Sequence record: OQ031495
From: Escherichia phage MRostami-2023e
DNA: 64,000 nucleotides
Reading direction: 5' to 3' (one strand)
The translations under genes and the position numbers were made by a program. This document shows positions 6,448-30,056 of this stretch, piece by piece; the first letter of the stretch is position 1, and each line of letters starts with the position of its first letter. A model generated the notes under the pieces. It worked only from the letters and a program-made list of their open reading frames with translations, did no database searches and was not told where the DNA came from.

Positions 6448-6728
6448 CTTCACAAAACTGTTTACANNNNNNNNNNNNNNNNNNNNNNNNNNNNNNNNNN
6501 NNNNNNNNNNNNNNNNNNNNNNNNNNNNNNNNNNNNNNNNNNNNNNNNNNNNNNNNNNNNNNNNNNNNNNNNNNNNNNNNNNNNNNNNNNNNNNNNNNNN
6601 NNNNNNNNNNNNNNNNNNNNNNNNNNNNNNNNNNNNNNNNNNNNNNNNNNNNNNNNNNNNNNNNNNNNNNNNNNNNNNNNNNNNNNNNNNNNNNNNNNNN
6701 NNNNNNNNNNNNNNNNNNNNNNNNNNNN

Positions 6729-10777: not shown

Positions 10778-11381
10778 NNNNNNNNNNNNNNNNNNNNNNN
10801 NNNNNNNNNNNNNNNNNNNNNNNNNNNNNNNNNNNNNNNNNNNNNNNNNNNNNNNNNNNNNNNNNNNNNNNNNNNNNNNNNNNNNNNNNNNNNNNNNNNN
10901 NNNNNNNNNNNNNNNNNNNNNNNNNNNNNNNNNNNNNNNNNNNNNNNNNNNNNNNNNNNNNNNNNNNNNNNNNNNNNNNNNNNNNNNNNNNNNNNNNNNN
11001 NNNNNNNNNNNNNNNNNNNNNNNNNNNNNNNNNNNNNNNNNNNNNNNNNNNNNNNNNNNNNNNNNNNNNNNNNNNNNNNNNNNNNNNNNNNNNNNNNNNN
11101 NNNNNNNNNNNNNNNNNNNNNNNNNNNNNNNNNNNNNNNNNNNNNNNNNNNNNNNNNNNNNNNNNNNNNNNNNNNNNNNNNNNNNNNNNNNNNNNNNNNN
11201 NNNNNNNNNNNNNNNNNTATTTACATTCAAATAACATGGGAACAACCTGGACCTCATGATTCTATGAGGGATTCCCGCCAACCTGTAATAAGGTCGAGCC
11301 CAAGTGCGGTAATGGGTTTACATAGCGAGTCGAAGGACCTAACATGTGCCACGGAATGGCCCAAACCTTAAGAGAAATAAT

Positions 11382-11921
11382 ATGAGAACATTTTTAACTG
11401 GACCTTATCTATCCCTGATGAATGCTTTTACACACCATTCTGATGCTAGAGTAGAAGAAATTTGTAAGAACGGATATGTCCCACCATTTGAAGACGTACT
11501 CAAGCAGTACTGTACACTTCGTTTAGACGGCGGCCGACAATCAGGTAAATCAATTGCTGTGACTAACTTTGCTGCTAATTGGCTGTATGATGGTGGAACG
11601 GTTATTGTTCTTTCTAATACTTCAGCTTATGCTAAAATTTCTGCTGGCAACATTGAAAAAGAATTTTCTCGTTATTCTAGCGACGATATTCGATTCCGTT
11701 TATTTACTGATTCTGTTCGTAGTTTTATTGGCAATGAAGGTTCTAAATTCCGTGGATTAACGCTTTCTCGTATTCTGTATATAATTGACGAGCCTATTAA
11801 AGCTCCTGATATGGATAAGATTTACAATGTCCATATTAAAACAGTACAGTACTGCTGTAAAAGCAAATATTGCATCGGCGGTAATGCTCGTCCTCAATTT
11901 TTTGTGATTGGAATGCAATGA
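11382..11921 (+). CDS. hypothetical P-loop protein (179 aa)
   Basis: Walker A-like GGRQSGKS. Confidence 0.5.
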   Translation: MRTFLTGPYLSLMNAFTHHSDARVEEICKNGYVPPFEDVLKQYCTLRLDGGRQSGKSIAVTNFAANWLYDGGTVIVLSNTSAYAKISAGNIEKEFSRYSSDDIRFRLFTDSVRSFIGNEGSKFRGLTLSRILYIIDEPIKAPDMDKIYNVHIKTVQYCCKSKYCIGGNARPQFFVIGMQ

Positions 11922-12226
11922 TGACCACTATTGAAGTTTTTGAATATTGTTATAACAGTCCAGTATGCAATAAAAGGGCCCTTGTAGAAAATTACGAGAT
12001 TTACCATTTTAAACCTAAACGATATCGTTTGACTAAAGGTCCGTTCGCAGGGCAGCAGGTTCTTTGTACTGCTCCTAATGCACGACTGATGACTAGTATT
12101 CCACATTTCAAAATGGAATTTATTGATGGGCCATTTAAGGGATTAATCACTCAAAGTTTAATGGCGTTTAATTCCGTCCCATTTTTGATTAAAGAAAAAA
12201 CTTGGATAAATTTATTTTCTAATTGA
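11918..12226 (+). CDS. hypothetical protein (102 aa)
   Basis: ATGA-coupled ORF. Confidence 0.5.
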   Translation: MMTTIEVFEYCYNSPVCNKRALVENYEIYHFKPKRYRLTKGPFAGQQVLCTAPNARLMTSIPHFKMEFIDGPFKGLITQSLMAFNSVPFLIKEKTWINLFSN

Positions 12227-12232
12227 GGTTAT

Positions 12233-12595
12233 ATGAAAGCATATCAAATTCTTGAAGGCACACACAAAGGCACTATTTATTTTGAAGACGGTACTCAAGC
12301 CCGGATTATTGTCTCTAAGACTTTTAAAGAAGACGCTATTGTAGACCCGGAAATTTTCTACGGTTTGCATGCCCGTGAAATTGAAATTGAACATCAACCT
12401 AAAGTTAAAATTGAAGGTGGTCAACATCTGAACGTTAACGTTCTGCGTCGTGAAACTCTGGAAGATGCAGTTAAGCATCCAGAAAAATATCCGCAGTTGA
12501 CCATCCGTGTATCCGGTTATGCAGTTCGCTTTAACTCTCTGACTCCGGAACAGCAGCGCGACGTTATCGCTCGTACCTTTACTGAGAGTCTATAA
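12233..12595 (+). CDS. GrcA/YfiD-like autonomous glycyl-radical cofactor protein
   Basis: C-terminal [56 protein letters not shown] contains the glycyl-radical motif RVSGYAV; 3' half is GC-rich with host-like codons. Confidence 0.8.
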
Positions 12596-12819
12596 TGGCT
12601 AAATTGATTATAGAAGGGTCTGAAGATGTTTTAAAATGTTTTGCCGCCTGGTTTAGTTGCTCAGGCGAGCAATCATTCATTGAAGCATTTAGAATGGGTG
12701 ATATTACTGGAAACTATCCGGCAACTGATATCACTGTACGTGGATATGGTATTAATGAGCCTATCCAATTGGTCGAATATGACCTTGCCACCGATGAGGA
12801 AATTCCTTATGTCGATTGA
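12595..12819 (+). CDS. hypothetical protein (74 aa)
   Basis: ATG overlapping upstream stop. Confidence 0.5.
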   Translation: MAKLIIEGSEDVLKCFAAWFSCSGEQSFIEAFRMGDITGNYPATDITVRGYGINEPIQLVEYDLATDEEIPYVD

Positions 12820-13075: not shown

Positions 13076-13293
13076 TGGCTNNNNNNNNNNNNNNNNNNNN
13101 NNNNNNNNNNNNNNNNNNNNNNNNNNNNNNNNNNNNNNNNNNNNNNNNNNNNNNNNNNNNNNNNNNNNNNNNNNNNNNNNNNNNNNNNNNNNNNNNNNNN
13201 NNNNNNNNNNNNNNNNNNNNNNNNNNNNNNNNNNNNNNNNNNNNNNNNNNNNNNNNNNNNNNNNNNNNNNNNNNNNNNNNNNATCAAAGAGTA

Positions 13294-15154: not shown

Positions 15155-15578
15155 NNNNNNNNNNNNNNNNNNNNNNNNNNNNNNNNNNNNNNNNNNNNNN
15201 NNNNNNNNNNNNNNNNNNNNNNNNNNNNNNNNNNNNNNNNNNNNNNNNNNNNNNNNNNNNNNNNNNNNNNNNNNNNNNNNNNNNNNNNNNNNNNNNNNNN
15301 NNNNNNNNNNNNNNNNNNNNNNNNNNNNNNNNNNNNNNNNNNNNNNNNNNNNNNNNNNNNNNNNNNNNNNNNNNNNNNNNNNNNNNNNNNNNNNNNNNNN
15401 NNNNNNNNNNNNNNNNATGGACTGTTTTTTTTACTTTATGTAACGATGAAATGATATGTGATTTTGATTATTGGTGTTATTGCTATTGATACAATAAAGG
15501 ATGTACAAATCATACAGGTGAAGGTTTCTATTCCGGGTTTCAACCGTATCCAGACTTTGTNNNNNNNNGTGAACCTAA

Positions 15579-17288: not shown

Positions 17289-17669
17289 NNNNNNNNNNNN
17301 NNNNNNNNNNNNNNNNNNNNNNNNNNNNNNNNNNNNNNNNNNNNNNNNNNNNNNNNNNNNNNNNNNNNNNNNNNNNNNNNNNNNNNNNNNNNNNNNNNNN
17401 NNNNNNNNNNNNNNNNNNNNNNNNNNNNNNNNNNNNNNNNNNNNNNNNNNNNNNNNNNNNNNNNNNNNNNNNNNNNNNNNNNNNNNNNNNNNNNNNNNNN
17501 NNNNNNNNNNNNNNNNNNNNNNNNNNNNNNNNNNNNNNNNNNNNNNNNNNNNNNNNNNNNNNNNNNNNNNNNNNNNNNNNNNNNNNNNNNNNNNNNNNNN
17601 NNNNNNNNNNNNNNNNNNNNNNNNNNNNCAAGTTGAAGAACTTTATCGACATTTAAAACACAATCGGTA

Positions 17670-23549: not shown

Positions 23550-24485
23550 ATGGCTTTTATTACACGTAAAGAACTTATCAAAGAATTTACCTCGAACGCA
23601 TATACTCCAGGACCTAATCCTATCCGTATGCCTGTAAAGACTCCTGAAGAGATTGAGGAAGTCTGTTCATATTATGGGATTACTTCTCGTAAGTTTACTC
23701 AATTTGAATGCGTTACTAACACACCCGTTAAAGAGTTCATTAAAAATGGTGAGTTCAGCCGTTTATTAGCCAAACAGAAACTTCGTAATTTTTGTATTGG
23801 CGGTGAAGGACAATATTTCGCTAAGCAGTTCCGGAATAACCTTAACAATCTGATGGCCATTGCTTCTCGTATTCGTCCTCAAGCAATTAACATGAAACAT
23901 TTGAAATATACTTACGATAAGTTGGAAATCATGGTTATCAGTGAGAATGAGTTCACTCTTACGTATAAACCTAAGAATGATAACGTTGCTCGTGTATTTC
24001 ACCAAGCGTTGGAAGTTTTAGGTGATAATATCCACCAGATTAAAGCAATTTATTCACGTGAGCTTAATATTATCAACCCCATCAAGAATAAGGGTCATAT
24101 TGCTATCCAGGCTCGTGTATCTATTGGTAAAAAGGTTCCTGCGCCATGGTGGCACAAAGACTCTGAATACTATCAAAATCTTAAAAAGGAAAATGCATTG
24201 TTTGAAGCATCGCTTACTGGAACCCCAATTGAACAGGCCGAAGTCCTAAGTGCTTATTCTACTTCTNNNNNNNNNNNNNNNNNNNNNNNNNNNAAACTAA
24301 AAGTTTCTAATGACCTTCTTCCGGCCGAAGATTACCATTACAATCAAATCAAGGCCACTATGGACCAACTGTCTGTTGAACTTGACAAAGCACAAGCTAA
24401 GCTTCGTGATGCTCAAAGTGTTGTAACGAATCTCCAGTTGCAGTATTCTAAACTTTTTAACGCAATGAATGCATTAAAATCATAA
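23550..24485 (+). CDS. hypothetical protein (311 aa) with C-terminal coiled coil; contains 27-nt masked stretch
   Basis: ORF; C-terminal heptad-rich tail. Confidence 0.55.
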   Translation: MAFITRKELIKEFTSNAYTPGPNPIRMPVKTPEEIEEVCSYYGITSRKFTQFECVTNTPVKEFIKNGEFSRLLAKQKLRNFCIGGEGQYFAKQFRNNLNNLMAIASRIRPQAINMKHLKYTYDKLEIMVISENEFTLTYKPKNDNVARVFHQALEVLGDNIHQIKAIYSRELNIINPIKNKGHIAIQARVSIGKKVPAPWWHKDSEYYQNLKKENALFEASLTGTPIEQAEVLSAYSTSXXXXXXXXXKLKVSNDLLPAEDYHYNQIKATMDQLSVELDKAQAKLRDAQSVVTNLQLQYSKLFNAMNALKS

Positions 24486-27539: not shown

Positions 27540-27738
27540 NNNNNNNNNNNNNNNNNNNNNNNNNNNNNNNNNNNNNNNNNNNNNNNNNNNNNNNNNNNNN
27601 NNNNNNNNNNNNNNNNNNNNNNNNNNNNNNNNNNNNNNNNNNNNNNNNNNNNNNNNNNNNNNNNNNNNNNNNNNNNNNNNNNNNNNNNNNNNNNNNNNNN
27701 NNNNNNNNNNNNNNNNNNNNNNNNTTAAGTTAATAAAT

Positions 27739-27768: not shown

Positions 27769-28242
27769 ATGTTATTATCAGGCGCAAAATATAAAGAAGA
27801 AAAACAAAAATTTTATGATGCACAGAACGGTAAGTGTCCTATTTGCCACCGTGAATTAGACCCTGATGTTCAAGGTAACCATCTTGACCACGACCATGAA
27901 TTAAACGGGCCAAAAGCCGGTAGAGTTCGTGGATTACTCTGTAATCTGTGCAACGCAGCAGAAGGTCAAATGAAGCATAAGTTCAACCGTTCTGGTCTTA
28001 AAGGCCGTGATGTCGACTACCTAGAATGGCTTGAAGCTCTTCTCGCTTATTTGAAACAAGATTATTCTGATAATAATATCCATCCTAATTTTGTTCCAGA
28101 CAAAACTAAAGAGTTCTCAAGACTAGGTAAAGAGGAAATGATGACCGAGATGCTTCAAAGAGGATTTGAATATAATGAATCAGATACTAAAACACAATTA
28201 ATAGCTTCATTCAAAAAGCAGCTTAGAAAGAGTTTAAAATGA
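27769..28242 (+). CDS. 49: endonuclease VII (Holliday-junction resolvase, gp49)
   Basis: KEEKQKFYDAQNGKC.IC.REL.PDVQ.NHLDHDHELNGPKAG.VRGLLCNLCNAAEG matches remembered T4 endo VII; 157 aa. Confidence 0.95.
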   Translation: MLLSGAKYKEEKQKFYDAQNGKCPICHRELDPDVQGNHLDHDHELNGPKAGRVRGLLCNLCNAAEGQMKHKFNRSGLKGRDVDYLEWLEALLAYLKQDYSDNNIHPNFVPDKTKEFSRLGKEEMMTEMLQRGFEYNESDTKTQLIASFKKQLRKSLK

Positions 28243-30056
28243 AAATTGAAAAAGAAATTGAAGGATTAATTCATAAAACTAATAAAGACCTTTTAAACGA
28301 GAATGCTAATAAAGATTCTCGTGTTTTTCCAACTCAACGGGACCTTATGGCTGGTATTGTGTCTAAGCACATTGCCAAAAATATGGTCCCGTCTTTTATT
28401 ATGAATGCGCATGAAAGCGGAATCATTCACATGCATGATATTGATTATTCTCCTGCTCTTCCATTTACTAATTGCTGTTTAGTCGATTTAAAGGGGATGC
28501 TTGAGAATGGATTTAAATTAGGCAATGCTCAAATTGAAACGCCTAAATCTATTGGCGTTGCTACTGCAATTATGGCACAAATTACCGCACAAGTTGCTTC
28601 ACACCAATATGGCGGAACTACATTTGCGAATGTCGATAAAGTTCTTTCTCCTTATGTTAAACGCACATACGCTAAACATATTGAGGACGCAGAAAAATGG
28701 CAAATCGCTGATGCGTTGAATTATGCCCAATCTAAAACAGAAAAAGACGTATACGATGCATTCCAAGCTTATGAATATGAAGTAAATACTCTCTTTAGTT
28801 CAAACGGACAGACTCCTTTTGTAACAATTACATTTGGTACAGGAACCGACTGGACTGAACGAATGATTCAGAAAGCAATTCTTAAAAACCGCATTAAAGG
28901 CCTTGGTCGTGATGGAATAACTCCTATTTTCCCTAAGCTTGTTATGTTCGTTGAAGAAGGTGTTAATCTTTATAAAGACGATCCGAACTATGATATTAAG
29001 CAGCTTGCTTTAGAATGTGCAAGCAAAAGAATGTATCCTGACATCATTTCGGCTAAGAACAATAAAGCTATCACCGGCTCATCTATTCCTGTTTCTCCAA
29101 TGGGTTGCCGTAGTTTCTTGAGCGTATGGAAAGATTCAACTGGCAATGAAATTCTTGATGGACGCAATAATCTTGGCGTTGTAACACTGAATCTTCCTCG
29201 TATTGCGTTAGATTCTTATATTGGAACACAATTCAATGAACAGAAATTTGCCGAATTGTTCAATGAACGAATGGACCTGTGTTTTGAAGCTTTGATGTGT
29301 AGAATTAGTTCCTTAAAAGGAGTTAAAGCGACTGTTGCTCCTATTCTTTACCAAGAAGGTGCATTTGGGGTTCGTCTTAAACCTGACGACGATATAATTG
29401 AGTTATTTAAAAACGGTAGAAGTTCAGTGTCTTTAGGATACATCGGTATTCATGAATTGAATATTCTTGTCGGCCGTGATATTGGACAAGAAATTTTAAC
29501 TAAAATGAATGCTCATCTTAAACAGTGGACTGAAAGAACCGGTTTTGCTTTTAGCTTGTATTCTACTCCTGCTGAAAACCTGTGCTATCGCTTCTGTAAA
29601 CTTGATACTGAAAAATATGGAAGTGTAAAAGATGTTACTGATAAAGGCTGGTACACTAACAGTTTCCATGTTTCAGTAGAAGAAAATATTACTCCGTTTG
29701 AAAAGATTTATCGCGAAGCCCCATATCATTTCATTTCGNNNNNNNNNNNNNNNNNNNNNNNNNNNNNNNNNNNNNNNNNNNNNNNNNNNNNNNNNNNNNN
29801 NNNNNNNNNNNNNNNNNNNNNNNNNNNNNNNNNNNNNNNNNNNNNNNNNNNNNNNNNNNNNNNNNNNNNNNNNNNNNNNNNNNNNNNNNNNNNNNNNNNN
29901 NNNNNNNNNNNATTTGTTTGTTCTATGTGTGGAGAAACTGATCCTAAAAAGATGAACACAATAAGAAGAACGTGTGGTTATCTTGGAAACCCGAACGAAC
30001 GCGGATTTAATCTAGGCAAAAATAAAGAAATCATGCATAGGGTTAAACACCAATGA
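28239..30056 (+). CDS. nrdD: anaerobic ribonucleoside-triphosphate reductase NrdD (glycyl-radical region masked)
   Basis: 605 aa as T4 NrdD; C-terminal Zn/Cys cluster CSMCGE...RRTCGYLG; continuous ORF, no intron. Confidence 0.9.
   Translation: MKIEKEIEGLIHKTNKDLLNENANKDSRVFPTQRDLMAGIVSKHIAKNMVPSFIMNAHESGIIHMHDIDYSPALPFTNCCLVDLKGMLENGFKLGNAQIETPKSIGVATAIMAQITAQVASHQYGGTTFANVDKVLSPYVKRTYAKHIEDAEKWQIADALNYAQSKTEKDVYDAFQAYEYEVNTLFSSNGQTPFVTITFGTGTDWTERMIQKAILKNRIKGLGRDGITPIFPKLVMFVEEGVNLYKDDPNYDIKQLALECASKRMYPDIISAKNNKAITGSSIPVSPMGCRSFLSVWKDSTGNEILDGRNNLGVVTLNLPRIALDSYIGTQFNEQKFAELFNERMDLCFEALMCRISSLKGVKATVAPILYQEGAFGVRLKPDDDIIELFKNGRSSVSLGYIGIHELNILVGRDIGQEILTKMNAHLKQWTERTGFAFSLYSTPAENLCYRFCKLDTEKYGSVKDVTDKGWYTNSFHVSVEENITPFEKIYREAPYHFISXXXXXXXXXXXXXXXXXXXXXXXXXXXXXXXXXXXXXXXXXXXXXXXXXXXXXXXXXXFVCSMCGETDPKKMNTIRRTCGYLGNPNERGFNLGKNKEIMHRVKHQ

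Follow-up and report, generated by a model that had tools for sequence, protein, structure and literature searches.

The closest described relatives of the gene considered here encode two small proteins that repair pyruvate formate-lyase (PFL): GrcA of Escherichia coli, also called YfiD (P68066; structure 6OWR), and the product of vs.6 in phage T4 (NP_049730), whose older name is Y06I (UniProt Y06I_BPT4). Both are activated by PFL activase and restore PFL that has been cleaved by O2, according to PMC8683613, which credits Wagner et al. 2001, from Knappe and co-workers; YfiD and Y06I are described there as the only two biochemically validated spare parts. The same paper gives residues 1–60 of GrcA as disordered, aiding the binding of cleaved PFL (cPFL) and installation of the radical, and residues 61–127 as the inserted domain (PMC8683613). 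The gene and its biochemistry are already known and have been characterised since 2001. Here a stretch of 64,000 nucleotides (nt) from Escherichia phage MRostami-2023e (sequence record OQ031495), called the window throughout, was analysed, and the vs.6 orthologue that it carries at 12233-12595 was compared with these systems. It is very probably an old phage homologue of grcA whose 3′ segment has been overwritten by grcA DNA of the host.

For exchange within a gene the nearest precedent is psbA/psbD of cyanophages, where patchy G+C and supported intragenic recombination between host and phage were found in host-like metabolic genes of T4-like phages (Zeidner 2005; Sullivan 2006, PMC1484495). 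In vs.6, as distinct from psbA/psbD, the patch forms a single discrete segment, its ends are fixed and match a structured domain, and its identity to the host allele reaches 100%; it is host-matched in two enterobacterial phage genera, and there is no evidence of flow from phage to host. The features expected of a mosaic auxiliary metabolic gene, namely a distinct composition, a supported breakpoint and a patch nested in a host clade, were all found. The vs.6 mosaic is a cleaner and more extreme example of psbA-like recombination, and it occurs in T4 itself. A literature search gave no publication on a host-to-phage mosaic in vs.6/grcA, although its coverage was incomplete and such an absence is not proof.

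The gene is an intact open reading frame (ORF) on the plus strand, of 120 codons plus stop, and encodes the phage form of GrcA. T4 vs.6 has the same length, the same motif and a host-like 3′ block with the same boundaries, and the two proteins are 95% identical in amino acids (aa). The neighbourhood of vs.6 in T4 (denV, vs.8, vs.7, vs.6, regB, vs.1, vs, tk) is also shared with the window. The differences lie in the N-terminal half (N-half), where the window represents a second allele clade of Tequatrovirus and departs from T4 at 17 of 178 nt, and in the core of the block, where the window has three synonymous changes towards A/T and T4 has a single non-synonymous one, R73H. E. coli GrcA is of the same architecture and class of function; it agrees with the protein in all of the C-terminal 60 aa (about 97% at the nucleotide level), whereas the N-half is only about 35% identical and 7 residues shorter. 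The surroundings differ too: E. coli grcA lies between ung and eamB, the phage gene in a run of closely spaced same-strand ORFs of a lytic phage. The gene is made up of three parts, whose GC content and third-position GC content (GC3) are given where relevant:

12233..12410, plus strand: AT-rich N-half of phage lineage, aa 1-59 (GC 0.365, GC3 0.27), corresponding to the disordered cPFL-binding half of GrcA.

12411..12584, plus strand: host-derived core patch encoding the structured glycyl-radical domain, matching E. coli grcA nt ~200-373.

12585..12595, plus strand: phage-type 3′ tail, GAG AGT CTA TAA against GAA AGC CTG TAA in E. coli, marking the 3′ junction of the patch.

A first-pass annotation, made by a model from the letters of the window, had described the gene as GrcA-like, with an essentially enterobacterial C-terminus of about 60 residues including the glycyl-radical motif, a GC-rich 3′ part and a divergent, AT-rich N-terminal part, and had proposed a chimera formed by recent recombination with host grcA. 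The C-terminal 60 residues are indeed 100% identical to those of E. coli GrcA, with the glycyl-radical loop RVSGYAV intact. The change in composition is also real: GC is 0.473 in the block 12411-12592, against 0.365 in the N-half and a window mean of 0.372 +/- 0.037, which places the block in the top 0.6% of all 182-nt windows, although the shift is modest (about +10 points). Codon choice switches with it. The block uses CTG for 4/6 Leu (13% in the background), ATC in 2/2, CAG in 3/4 and AAC in 3/3 cases, and the N-half uses ATT in 9/9 and CAA in 3/3.

The GC shift says far less than the nucleotide identity to E. coli grcA. Over the last 60 codons this identity amounts to 174/180 nt in the window and 177/180 in T4, whereas outside Escherichia the highest bacterial score is that of Citrobacter amalonaticus, 161-164/180 (89-91%), E. 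coli and Citrobacter themselves differing at 13 sites. Taken over the last ~174-183 nt (12411-12584/12595) the identity to E. coli grcA is 96.7-98.3%, with zero amino-acid changes. In the 174-nt core, 171/174 positions (98.3%) are identical to grcA in each of 5,426 complete E. coli genomes, and the three differences, at 12427, 12481 and 12497, are all towards A/T, as expected from drift in an AT-rich phage.

The transition between the two parts is sharp. In a four-way alignment the match to E. coli grcA breaks down 5′ of TTGAAGGTGG and is nearly perfect 3′ of TTGAAGGTGG; in the N-half there is no nucleotide-level match to E. coli grcA beyond weak homology. With the unpatched Karamvirus Pet-CM3-4 and E. 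coli as the "parents", a maximum-chi-square test put the breakpoint at 12409-12418, with 57 phage-like and 12 E. coli-like informative sites to its left and 3 and 41 to its right (Fisher 1.9e-16; permutation p<=0.0005). At the other end, all eight Tequatrovirus sequences sampled in detail have their differences from E. coli grcA concentrated in the final ~10 nt (GAG/GAA AGT CTA/TTG against GAA AGC CTG), which places the 3′ junction near 12584. The two parts also have different affinities. In a neighbour-joining tree of the 180-nt block, built from 83 bacterial grcA genes and 24 phage genes, Tequatrovirus joins the two Escherichia sequences with a bootstrap of 99/100, while the N-half groups solely with phage homologues. 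The proposed chimera is thus borne out by the breakpoint, by the tree and by the low synonymous divergence (dS) of the block described below.

The N-half, however divergent, is an old but true GrcA homologue and not a foreign sequence. Its identity to the N-half of E. coli GrcA (~35% aa) comes with a blastp E of 1.7e-6, and phage and bacterial N-half profiles align with an hhalign probability of 93.5% (E 2.3e-7). It is common to Jiaodavirus, Karamvirus and related phages, and one IMG/VR group with an N-half beginning ARCLVAKE... looks intermediate by eye. As the N-half is homologous to that of GrcA, the gene is not a fusion of unrelated parts but an old grcA homologue with a replaced 3′ segment. 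In terms of GrcA, what was replaced is most of the structured domain (61-127), and what was retained is the disordered half (1-60).

Synonymous sites show that the block carries host DNA. The dS of the phage blocks against E. coli is 0.05-0.15, and the N-half is saturated. For the same block the dS of E. coli is 0.36 against Citrobacter, 0.56 against Klebsiella and 1.02 against Salmonella, despite a nearly invariant protein. Homologues of the same family and the same two-part architecture are widespread in other phages. In Karamvirus, Krischvirus, T5-like, jumbo and Aeromonas phages the blocks are 70-84% identical to any bacterial grcA and GC3 differs little between the halves of the gene, so these homologues are taken to be without a recent host patch. 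Because synonymous sites vary freely in bacteria and other phages reach only 70-84%, the identity of the Tequatrovirus block is a signal of Escherichia DNA and not of convergence. The N- and C-halves of bacterial grcA have comparable dS, so that the E. coli gene looks vertically inherited; since, in addition, the composition of the block is atypical for the phage, the direction of transfer is from host to phage. Taken together, these sequence comparisons make it very likely that the 3′ segment of an old phage grcA was overwritten by host DNA. The word "recent" in the first-pass annotation stands in the sense that the overwriting falls after the Escherichia/Citrobacter split, although the patch is common to ~650 Tequatrovirus genomes.

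A second host-matched patch was found in Klebsiella phages. Those of the Jiaodavirus type share the phage-type N-half, but in the block they reach no more than 85-89% identity to E. coli grcA. When compared with K. pneumoniae grcA (taken from chromosomes labelled as plasmids in PLSDB), 106 Klebsiella-phage records were 95-99% identical over nt 202-369/374, with a maximum of 98.2% in KPV15. The block of UTI-K1 is 94.2% identical to K. pneumoniae grcA and 88.5% to that of E. coli, and the Klebsiella phages have the Klebsiella-specific residues ETLLDAVEH in place of ETLEDAVKH. Given the Klebsiella-matched block in Klebsiella phages, the segment has been acquired at least two times from the genus of the resident host, from Escherichia into Tequatrovirus and from Klebsiella into Jiaodavirus.

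Several observations were made on the records used in this comparison. The PLSDB "plasmids" L092 (CP125156.1) and L093 (LR134122.1) include whole or partial chromosomes, for example the 5.37-Mb K. pneumoniae "plasmid unnamed2", and the reading frame of grcA is shifted in the record of K. aerogenes NCTC10006. L119, which is Klebsiella phage KPV15 as deposited in IMG/VR, has an interrupted vs.6 frame, with the ORF stopping at aa 49, within the N-half, owing to either a pseudogene or a sequencing error; its host-like block is 98.2% identical to K. pneumoniae grcA despite the broken frame. Among close relatives, Klebsiella phage L084 has ETLLDAVEH and Enterobacter phage HK6 (L086) has ETLEDAVKH; of the IMG/VR contigs with no stated host, L110 and L111 share the residues of L084, and L105-L109 those of HK6. 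The blocks of L084/L110/L111 and of L086/L105-L109 are ~83% identical to any sampled bacterial grcA.

How often the overwriting has happened within Tequatrovirus was then considered. With E. coli grcA as the query 752 phage records matched, and all matches in Tequatrovirus extend from grcA nt 199/200 to the end of the gene (384) at 95.1-99.5% identity. The detailed sample (n=8) comprised the window, T4 and six IMG/VR contigs and fell into two allele clades. The divergence between the clades, segment by segment, was as follows:

Upstream flank: 34%.

N-half: 10%.

Core: 1.7% (range 0-3.4%).

11-nt tail: 20%.

Downstream flank: 26%.

As the core diverges by 0-3% between flanks that diverge far more deeply, it must be younger than the split of the phage alleles surrounding it, and the change is abrupt at both ends. 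The same contrast is seen in a single pair: between L095 and L097, 19/178 positions of the N-half differ but 0/174 of the core (p=2e-6). Between the clades dS is 0.35-0.47 in the N-half and 0.02-0.2 in the block. The core of L097 matches the majority E. coli allele at 100%, and 5,156/5,426 genomes are >=99% identical to it. Across the genus, identity to the window is <95% in the N-half of 492/648 records, but >=95% in the block of 633/646. This pattern fits repeated templating by the host gene better than a single ancient capture, and the overwriting within Tequatrovirus was probably repeated. A donor-allele test, in which the variant sites of L098 were compared with minor E. coli alleles, is suggestive at most, being a weak test in which the best allele removed 1/3 of the differences. 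On balance we lean, by a little, towards the view that the 174-nt block of vs.6 is a standing target of host-to-phage gene conversion during lytic infection, so that this domain would evolve in concert with the chromosomal gene of the host genus.

Certain results weigh against this account. Tequatroviruses isolated on Hafnia, Citrobacter, Yersinia and Salmonella keep the E. coli-type patch, so conversion must be too infrequent to track every isolation host, and the low diversity of the block in Tequatrovirus could come partly from one acquisition followed by spread from phage to phage. UTI-K1 groups with K. pneumoniae at a bootstrap of 46/100 only. The dS estimates draw on only ~45 usable synonymous sites and, for the detailed comparison, on eight sequences. 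Finally, against the NCBIfam model TIGR04365 the window protein scores 158.6 bits, under the equivalog cut-off of 170, compared with 233.9 for E. coli GrcA. The match spans aa 18-120, the model was built for bacterial proteins, and the shortfall arises because the N-half is divergent; by the NCBIfam threshold the gene is, to judge from its sequence, a phage branch of the GrcA family rather than a strict equivalog.

The first two of these points lead to the alternative that survives best, in which the ancestors of Tequatrovirus and of Jiaodavirus were each patched once, the patch was then inherited vertically or passed between phages, and the low diversity reflects a sweep or a low mutation rate. 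The identical boundaries of all Tequatrovirus matches (grcA nt 199/200 to 384) are what it predicts, as are the AGT codon or tail G common to 8/8 sampled phages and the E. coli patch kept in Tequatroviruses isolated outside Escherichia. The absence of the three core differences of the window from 5,426 E. coli genomes likewise fits drift after a single event. However, identical boundaries are equally expected if homology limits each event, and the contrast between the clades (0-3% in the core, 10% in the N-half and 26-34% in the flanks, with the change falling within ~8 nt of the boundary) is difficult to reconcile with one patch, since transfer from phage to phage should drag flanks along and have variable end points. 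Some cores, moreover, are 100% identical to the majority E. coli allele. One patch per genus is, therefore, considered unlikely, although it deserves to be weighed.

Much less survives of the proposal that the whole gene was captured once, after which the N-half drifted and the C-half was frozen by purifying or codon-usage selection with no second recombination. It would accommodate the homology of the two N-halves, the disorder of the GrcA N-half, which makes fast evolution possible, and the extreme conservation of the C-half protein in all phages and bacteria. But synonymous sites are free in bacteria (over the 180 nt E. coli differs from Citrobacter at 13, from Klebsiella at 21 and from Salmonella at 29), and the other phage genera, at 70-84% identity, are under the same protein constraint. 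Halves of equal age should have a similar dS, which is not the case for a block at 0.05-0.15 beside a saturated N-half; nor are the sharp breakpoint and the match of Klebsiella phages to Klebsiella grcA explained. The synonymous-site data thus seem largely to refute a single capture with uneven selection, which is regarded as very improbable. Convergent codon selection was rejected as well, since synonymous sites diverge within Enterobacteriaceae that have almost the same protein.

Host-to-phage conversion could come about as follows. T4 fragments the DNA of its host and has a very active homologous recombination system. Pairing between a fragment of host grcA and the phage gene would be confined to the conserved ~180 nt, the sequence upstream being too diverged and the gene ending downstream. 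A heteroduplex or a double crossover limited by homology would give fixed ends in all lineages, so that the identical boundaries may be explained by the patch running as far as the homology between phage and host allows. Once in place, a block that is 97-100% identical would ease further conversion, and repeated overwriting would keep the functional domain identical to the version of the current host genus.

As to function, a small stand-alone protein whose C-terminal ~60 aa copy PFL ~696-759 is a defining feature of the GrcA/YfiD family (TIGR04365 / IPR011140), and such a protein was found here. A search of the PDB gave E. coli GrcA 6OWR as the best match (E 2e-42) and also aligned PFL residues 696-759 (E 3e-26), and the Pfam domain Gly_radical was matched at aa 60-101 (E=2e-18). 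Alignment to GrcA (G102) and PFL (PflB G734) located the radical glycine:

12515..12517, plus strand: radical glycine codon, G95 in RVSGYAV.

Repair of oxidised PFL, the first of two functions offered in the first-pass annotation, has been demonstrated for the T4 orthologue (as described in PMC8683613). Given 95% identity between the window protein and Y06I, and an inserted domain that does not differ from that of GrcA, this mechanism is the one best supported, and the protein is best regarded as a putative PFL-repair spare part like Y06I. The phage would make a 14-kDa protein after infection, on which host PflA would install the radical at Gly95; the structured C-terminal domain would then slot into host PFL whose own C-terminus had been cut by oxygen, and the restored PFL would give acetyl-CoA as well as formate within a micro-oxic gut host. 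The benefit to the phage may be that shut-off of the host blocks induction of host grcA, and that PFL supplies acetyl-CoA and hence ATP.

The second function, service to the anaerobic ribonucleotide reductase NrdD of the phage as a spare part or radical donor in place of host PFL, fared badly. Since the two have a Pfam domain in common, Nolan et al. 2006 (PMC1524935) speculated about a role in nucleotide metabolism; the homologue in Salmonella phage SE_PL does sit between nrdD and nrdG, and the window encodes NrdD at 28227-30056 on the plus strand, found by motif scan (Pfam NRDD E 2e-136; glycyl motif RRTCGYLG). Part of this nrdD (29739-29911) is masked as N, and the C-terminal fragment at 29913-30053 matches Pfam NRDD. 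However, BLASTP at E<=100 gave no alignment between the protein of 12233-12595 and this C-terminus (29913-30053, RRTCGYLGNP...). The C-terminal domain of the protein is instead 100% identical to that of host GrcA and aligns with PFL 696-759 (E 3e-26), and the T4 protein has been shown to work with PFL and PFL activase (PMC8683613). A role with NrdD is accordingly thought a remote prospect. In the 133-142 kb region of T4, nrdA and nrdB are present and nrdD is not.

The chance of an artefact from host-read contamination, which would produce near-identity to host DNA, or of reverse transfer from phage to E. coli is negligible: the junctions of the patch are repeated in ~650 independent genomes, the Sanger record of T4 from 1986 (X04567) among them, the patch keeps the reading frame of the phage gene around it and gives way to a phage-type tail, and E. 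coli grcA is normal among Enterobacteriaceae in both halves, with host-typical codons, whereas the block is atypical for the phage.

The gene itself is ordinary; it is the host-matched and probably recurrent conversion that is of evolutionary interest. It provides clean natural evidence, from the virulent phage that has been studied best, for recombination between lytic T4-like phages and chromosomal genes of the host, and such exchange could keep the phage protein that partners PflA/PflB identical to the host version. If standing conversion is true, T4 vs.6/grcA would offer a simple and genetically tractable means of measuring recombination from host to lytic phage, whether in nature or in the laboratory. 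There are practical consequences too. A 2026 typing paper uses grcA as a core marker and as a target of quantitative polymerase chain reaction (qPCR) for Straboviridae (PMC12845203); with 98-100% identity between phage and E. coli grcA in the conserved half, host DNA is at risk of being amplified by primers that lie within it. Host-read filtering and contamination screens in metagenomics may similarly clip or flag this part of genuine phage genomes.

The DNA of 12233-12595 is 100% identical to that of Escherichia phage vB_EQ1 and 90-98% identical to that of ~650 Tequatrovirus genomes, many of whose records annotate the gene as "autonomous glycyl radical cofactor (GrcA)". Gene order in the window is that of T4: e (lysozyme), denV, vs.8, vs.7, the grcA-like gene, a vs.1-like transglycosylase, vs, tk.4 and tk. 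The TAA stop of the gene overlaps the ATG of the next ORF (12595-12819), and a likely ribosome-binding sequence was read directly:

12225..12228, plus strand: Shine-Dalgarno-like GAGG, 4 nt 5′ of the ATG and overlapping the stop of ORF 11918-12226.

A scan for promoters and terminators around the gene gave nothing exceeding shuffled expectation. The flanking ORFs 11918-12226 and 12595-12819 are without a Pfam match and are 26-34% diverged between the two Tequatrovirus allele clades, vs.6 being far more conserved; at the place of T4 vs.5 (58 aa) the window has an ORF of 74 aa. Ten runs in the window are masked as N (1799-1827, 6467-6728, 10778-11217, 13081-13282, 15155-15416, 15561-15568, 17289-17628, 24267-24293, 27540-27724 and 29739-29911), and none touches 12233-12595.

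At the protein level 1,591 phage records have a GrcA homologue. In the Salmonella jumbo phage SE_PL (L087, MT001829) it lies at 295-657, between nrdD and an nrdG-like activase gene, an arrangement not found in T4, and GC3 is 0.08-0.10 in both halves. The T5-like Demerecviridae (DT57C, L091, 301-669; L136-L162) have a homologue with the same C-terminal domain and a different N-half, which in DT57C adjoins tRNA genes. The contig L124 has the same N-half as Krischvirus JSE (L089) but many more GrcA-like residues in its C-half; its nucleotide identity to sampled bacteria is 80%, and it may represent an older or partial host patch in a third lineage. Finally, the IMG/VR "viral" contigs L122, with a fully bacterial-type grcA, and L163-L172, in which pflB is represented by its 3′ end, probably come from bacterial DNA or from DNA flanking a prophage.

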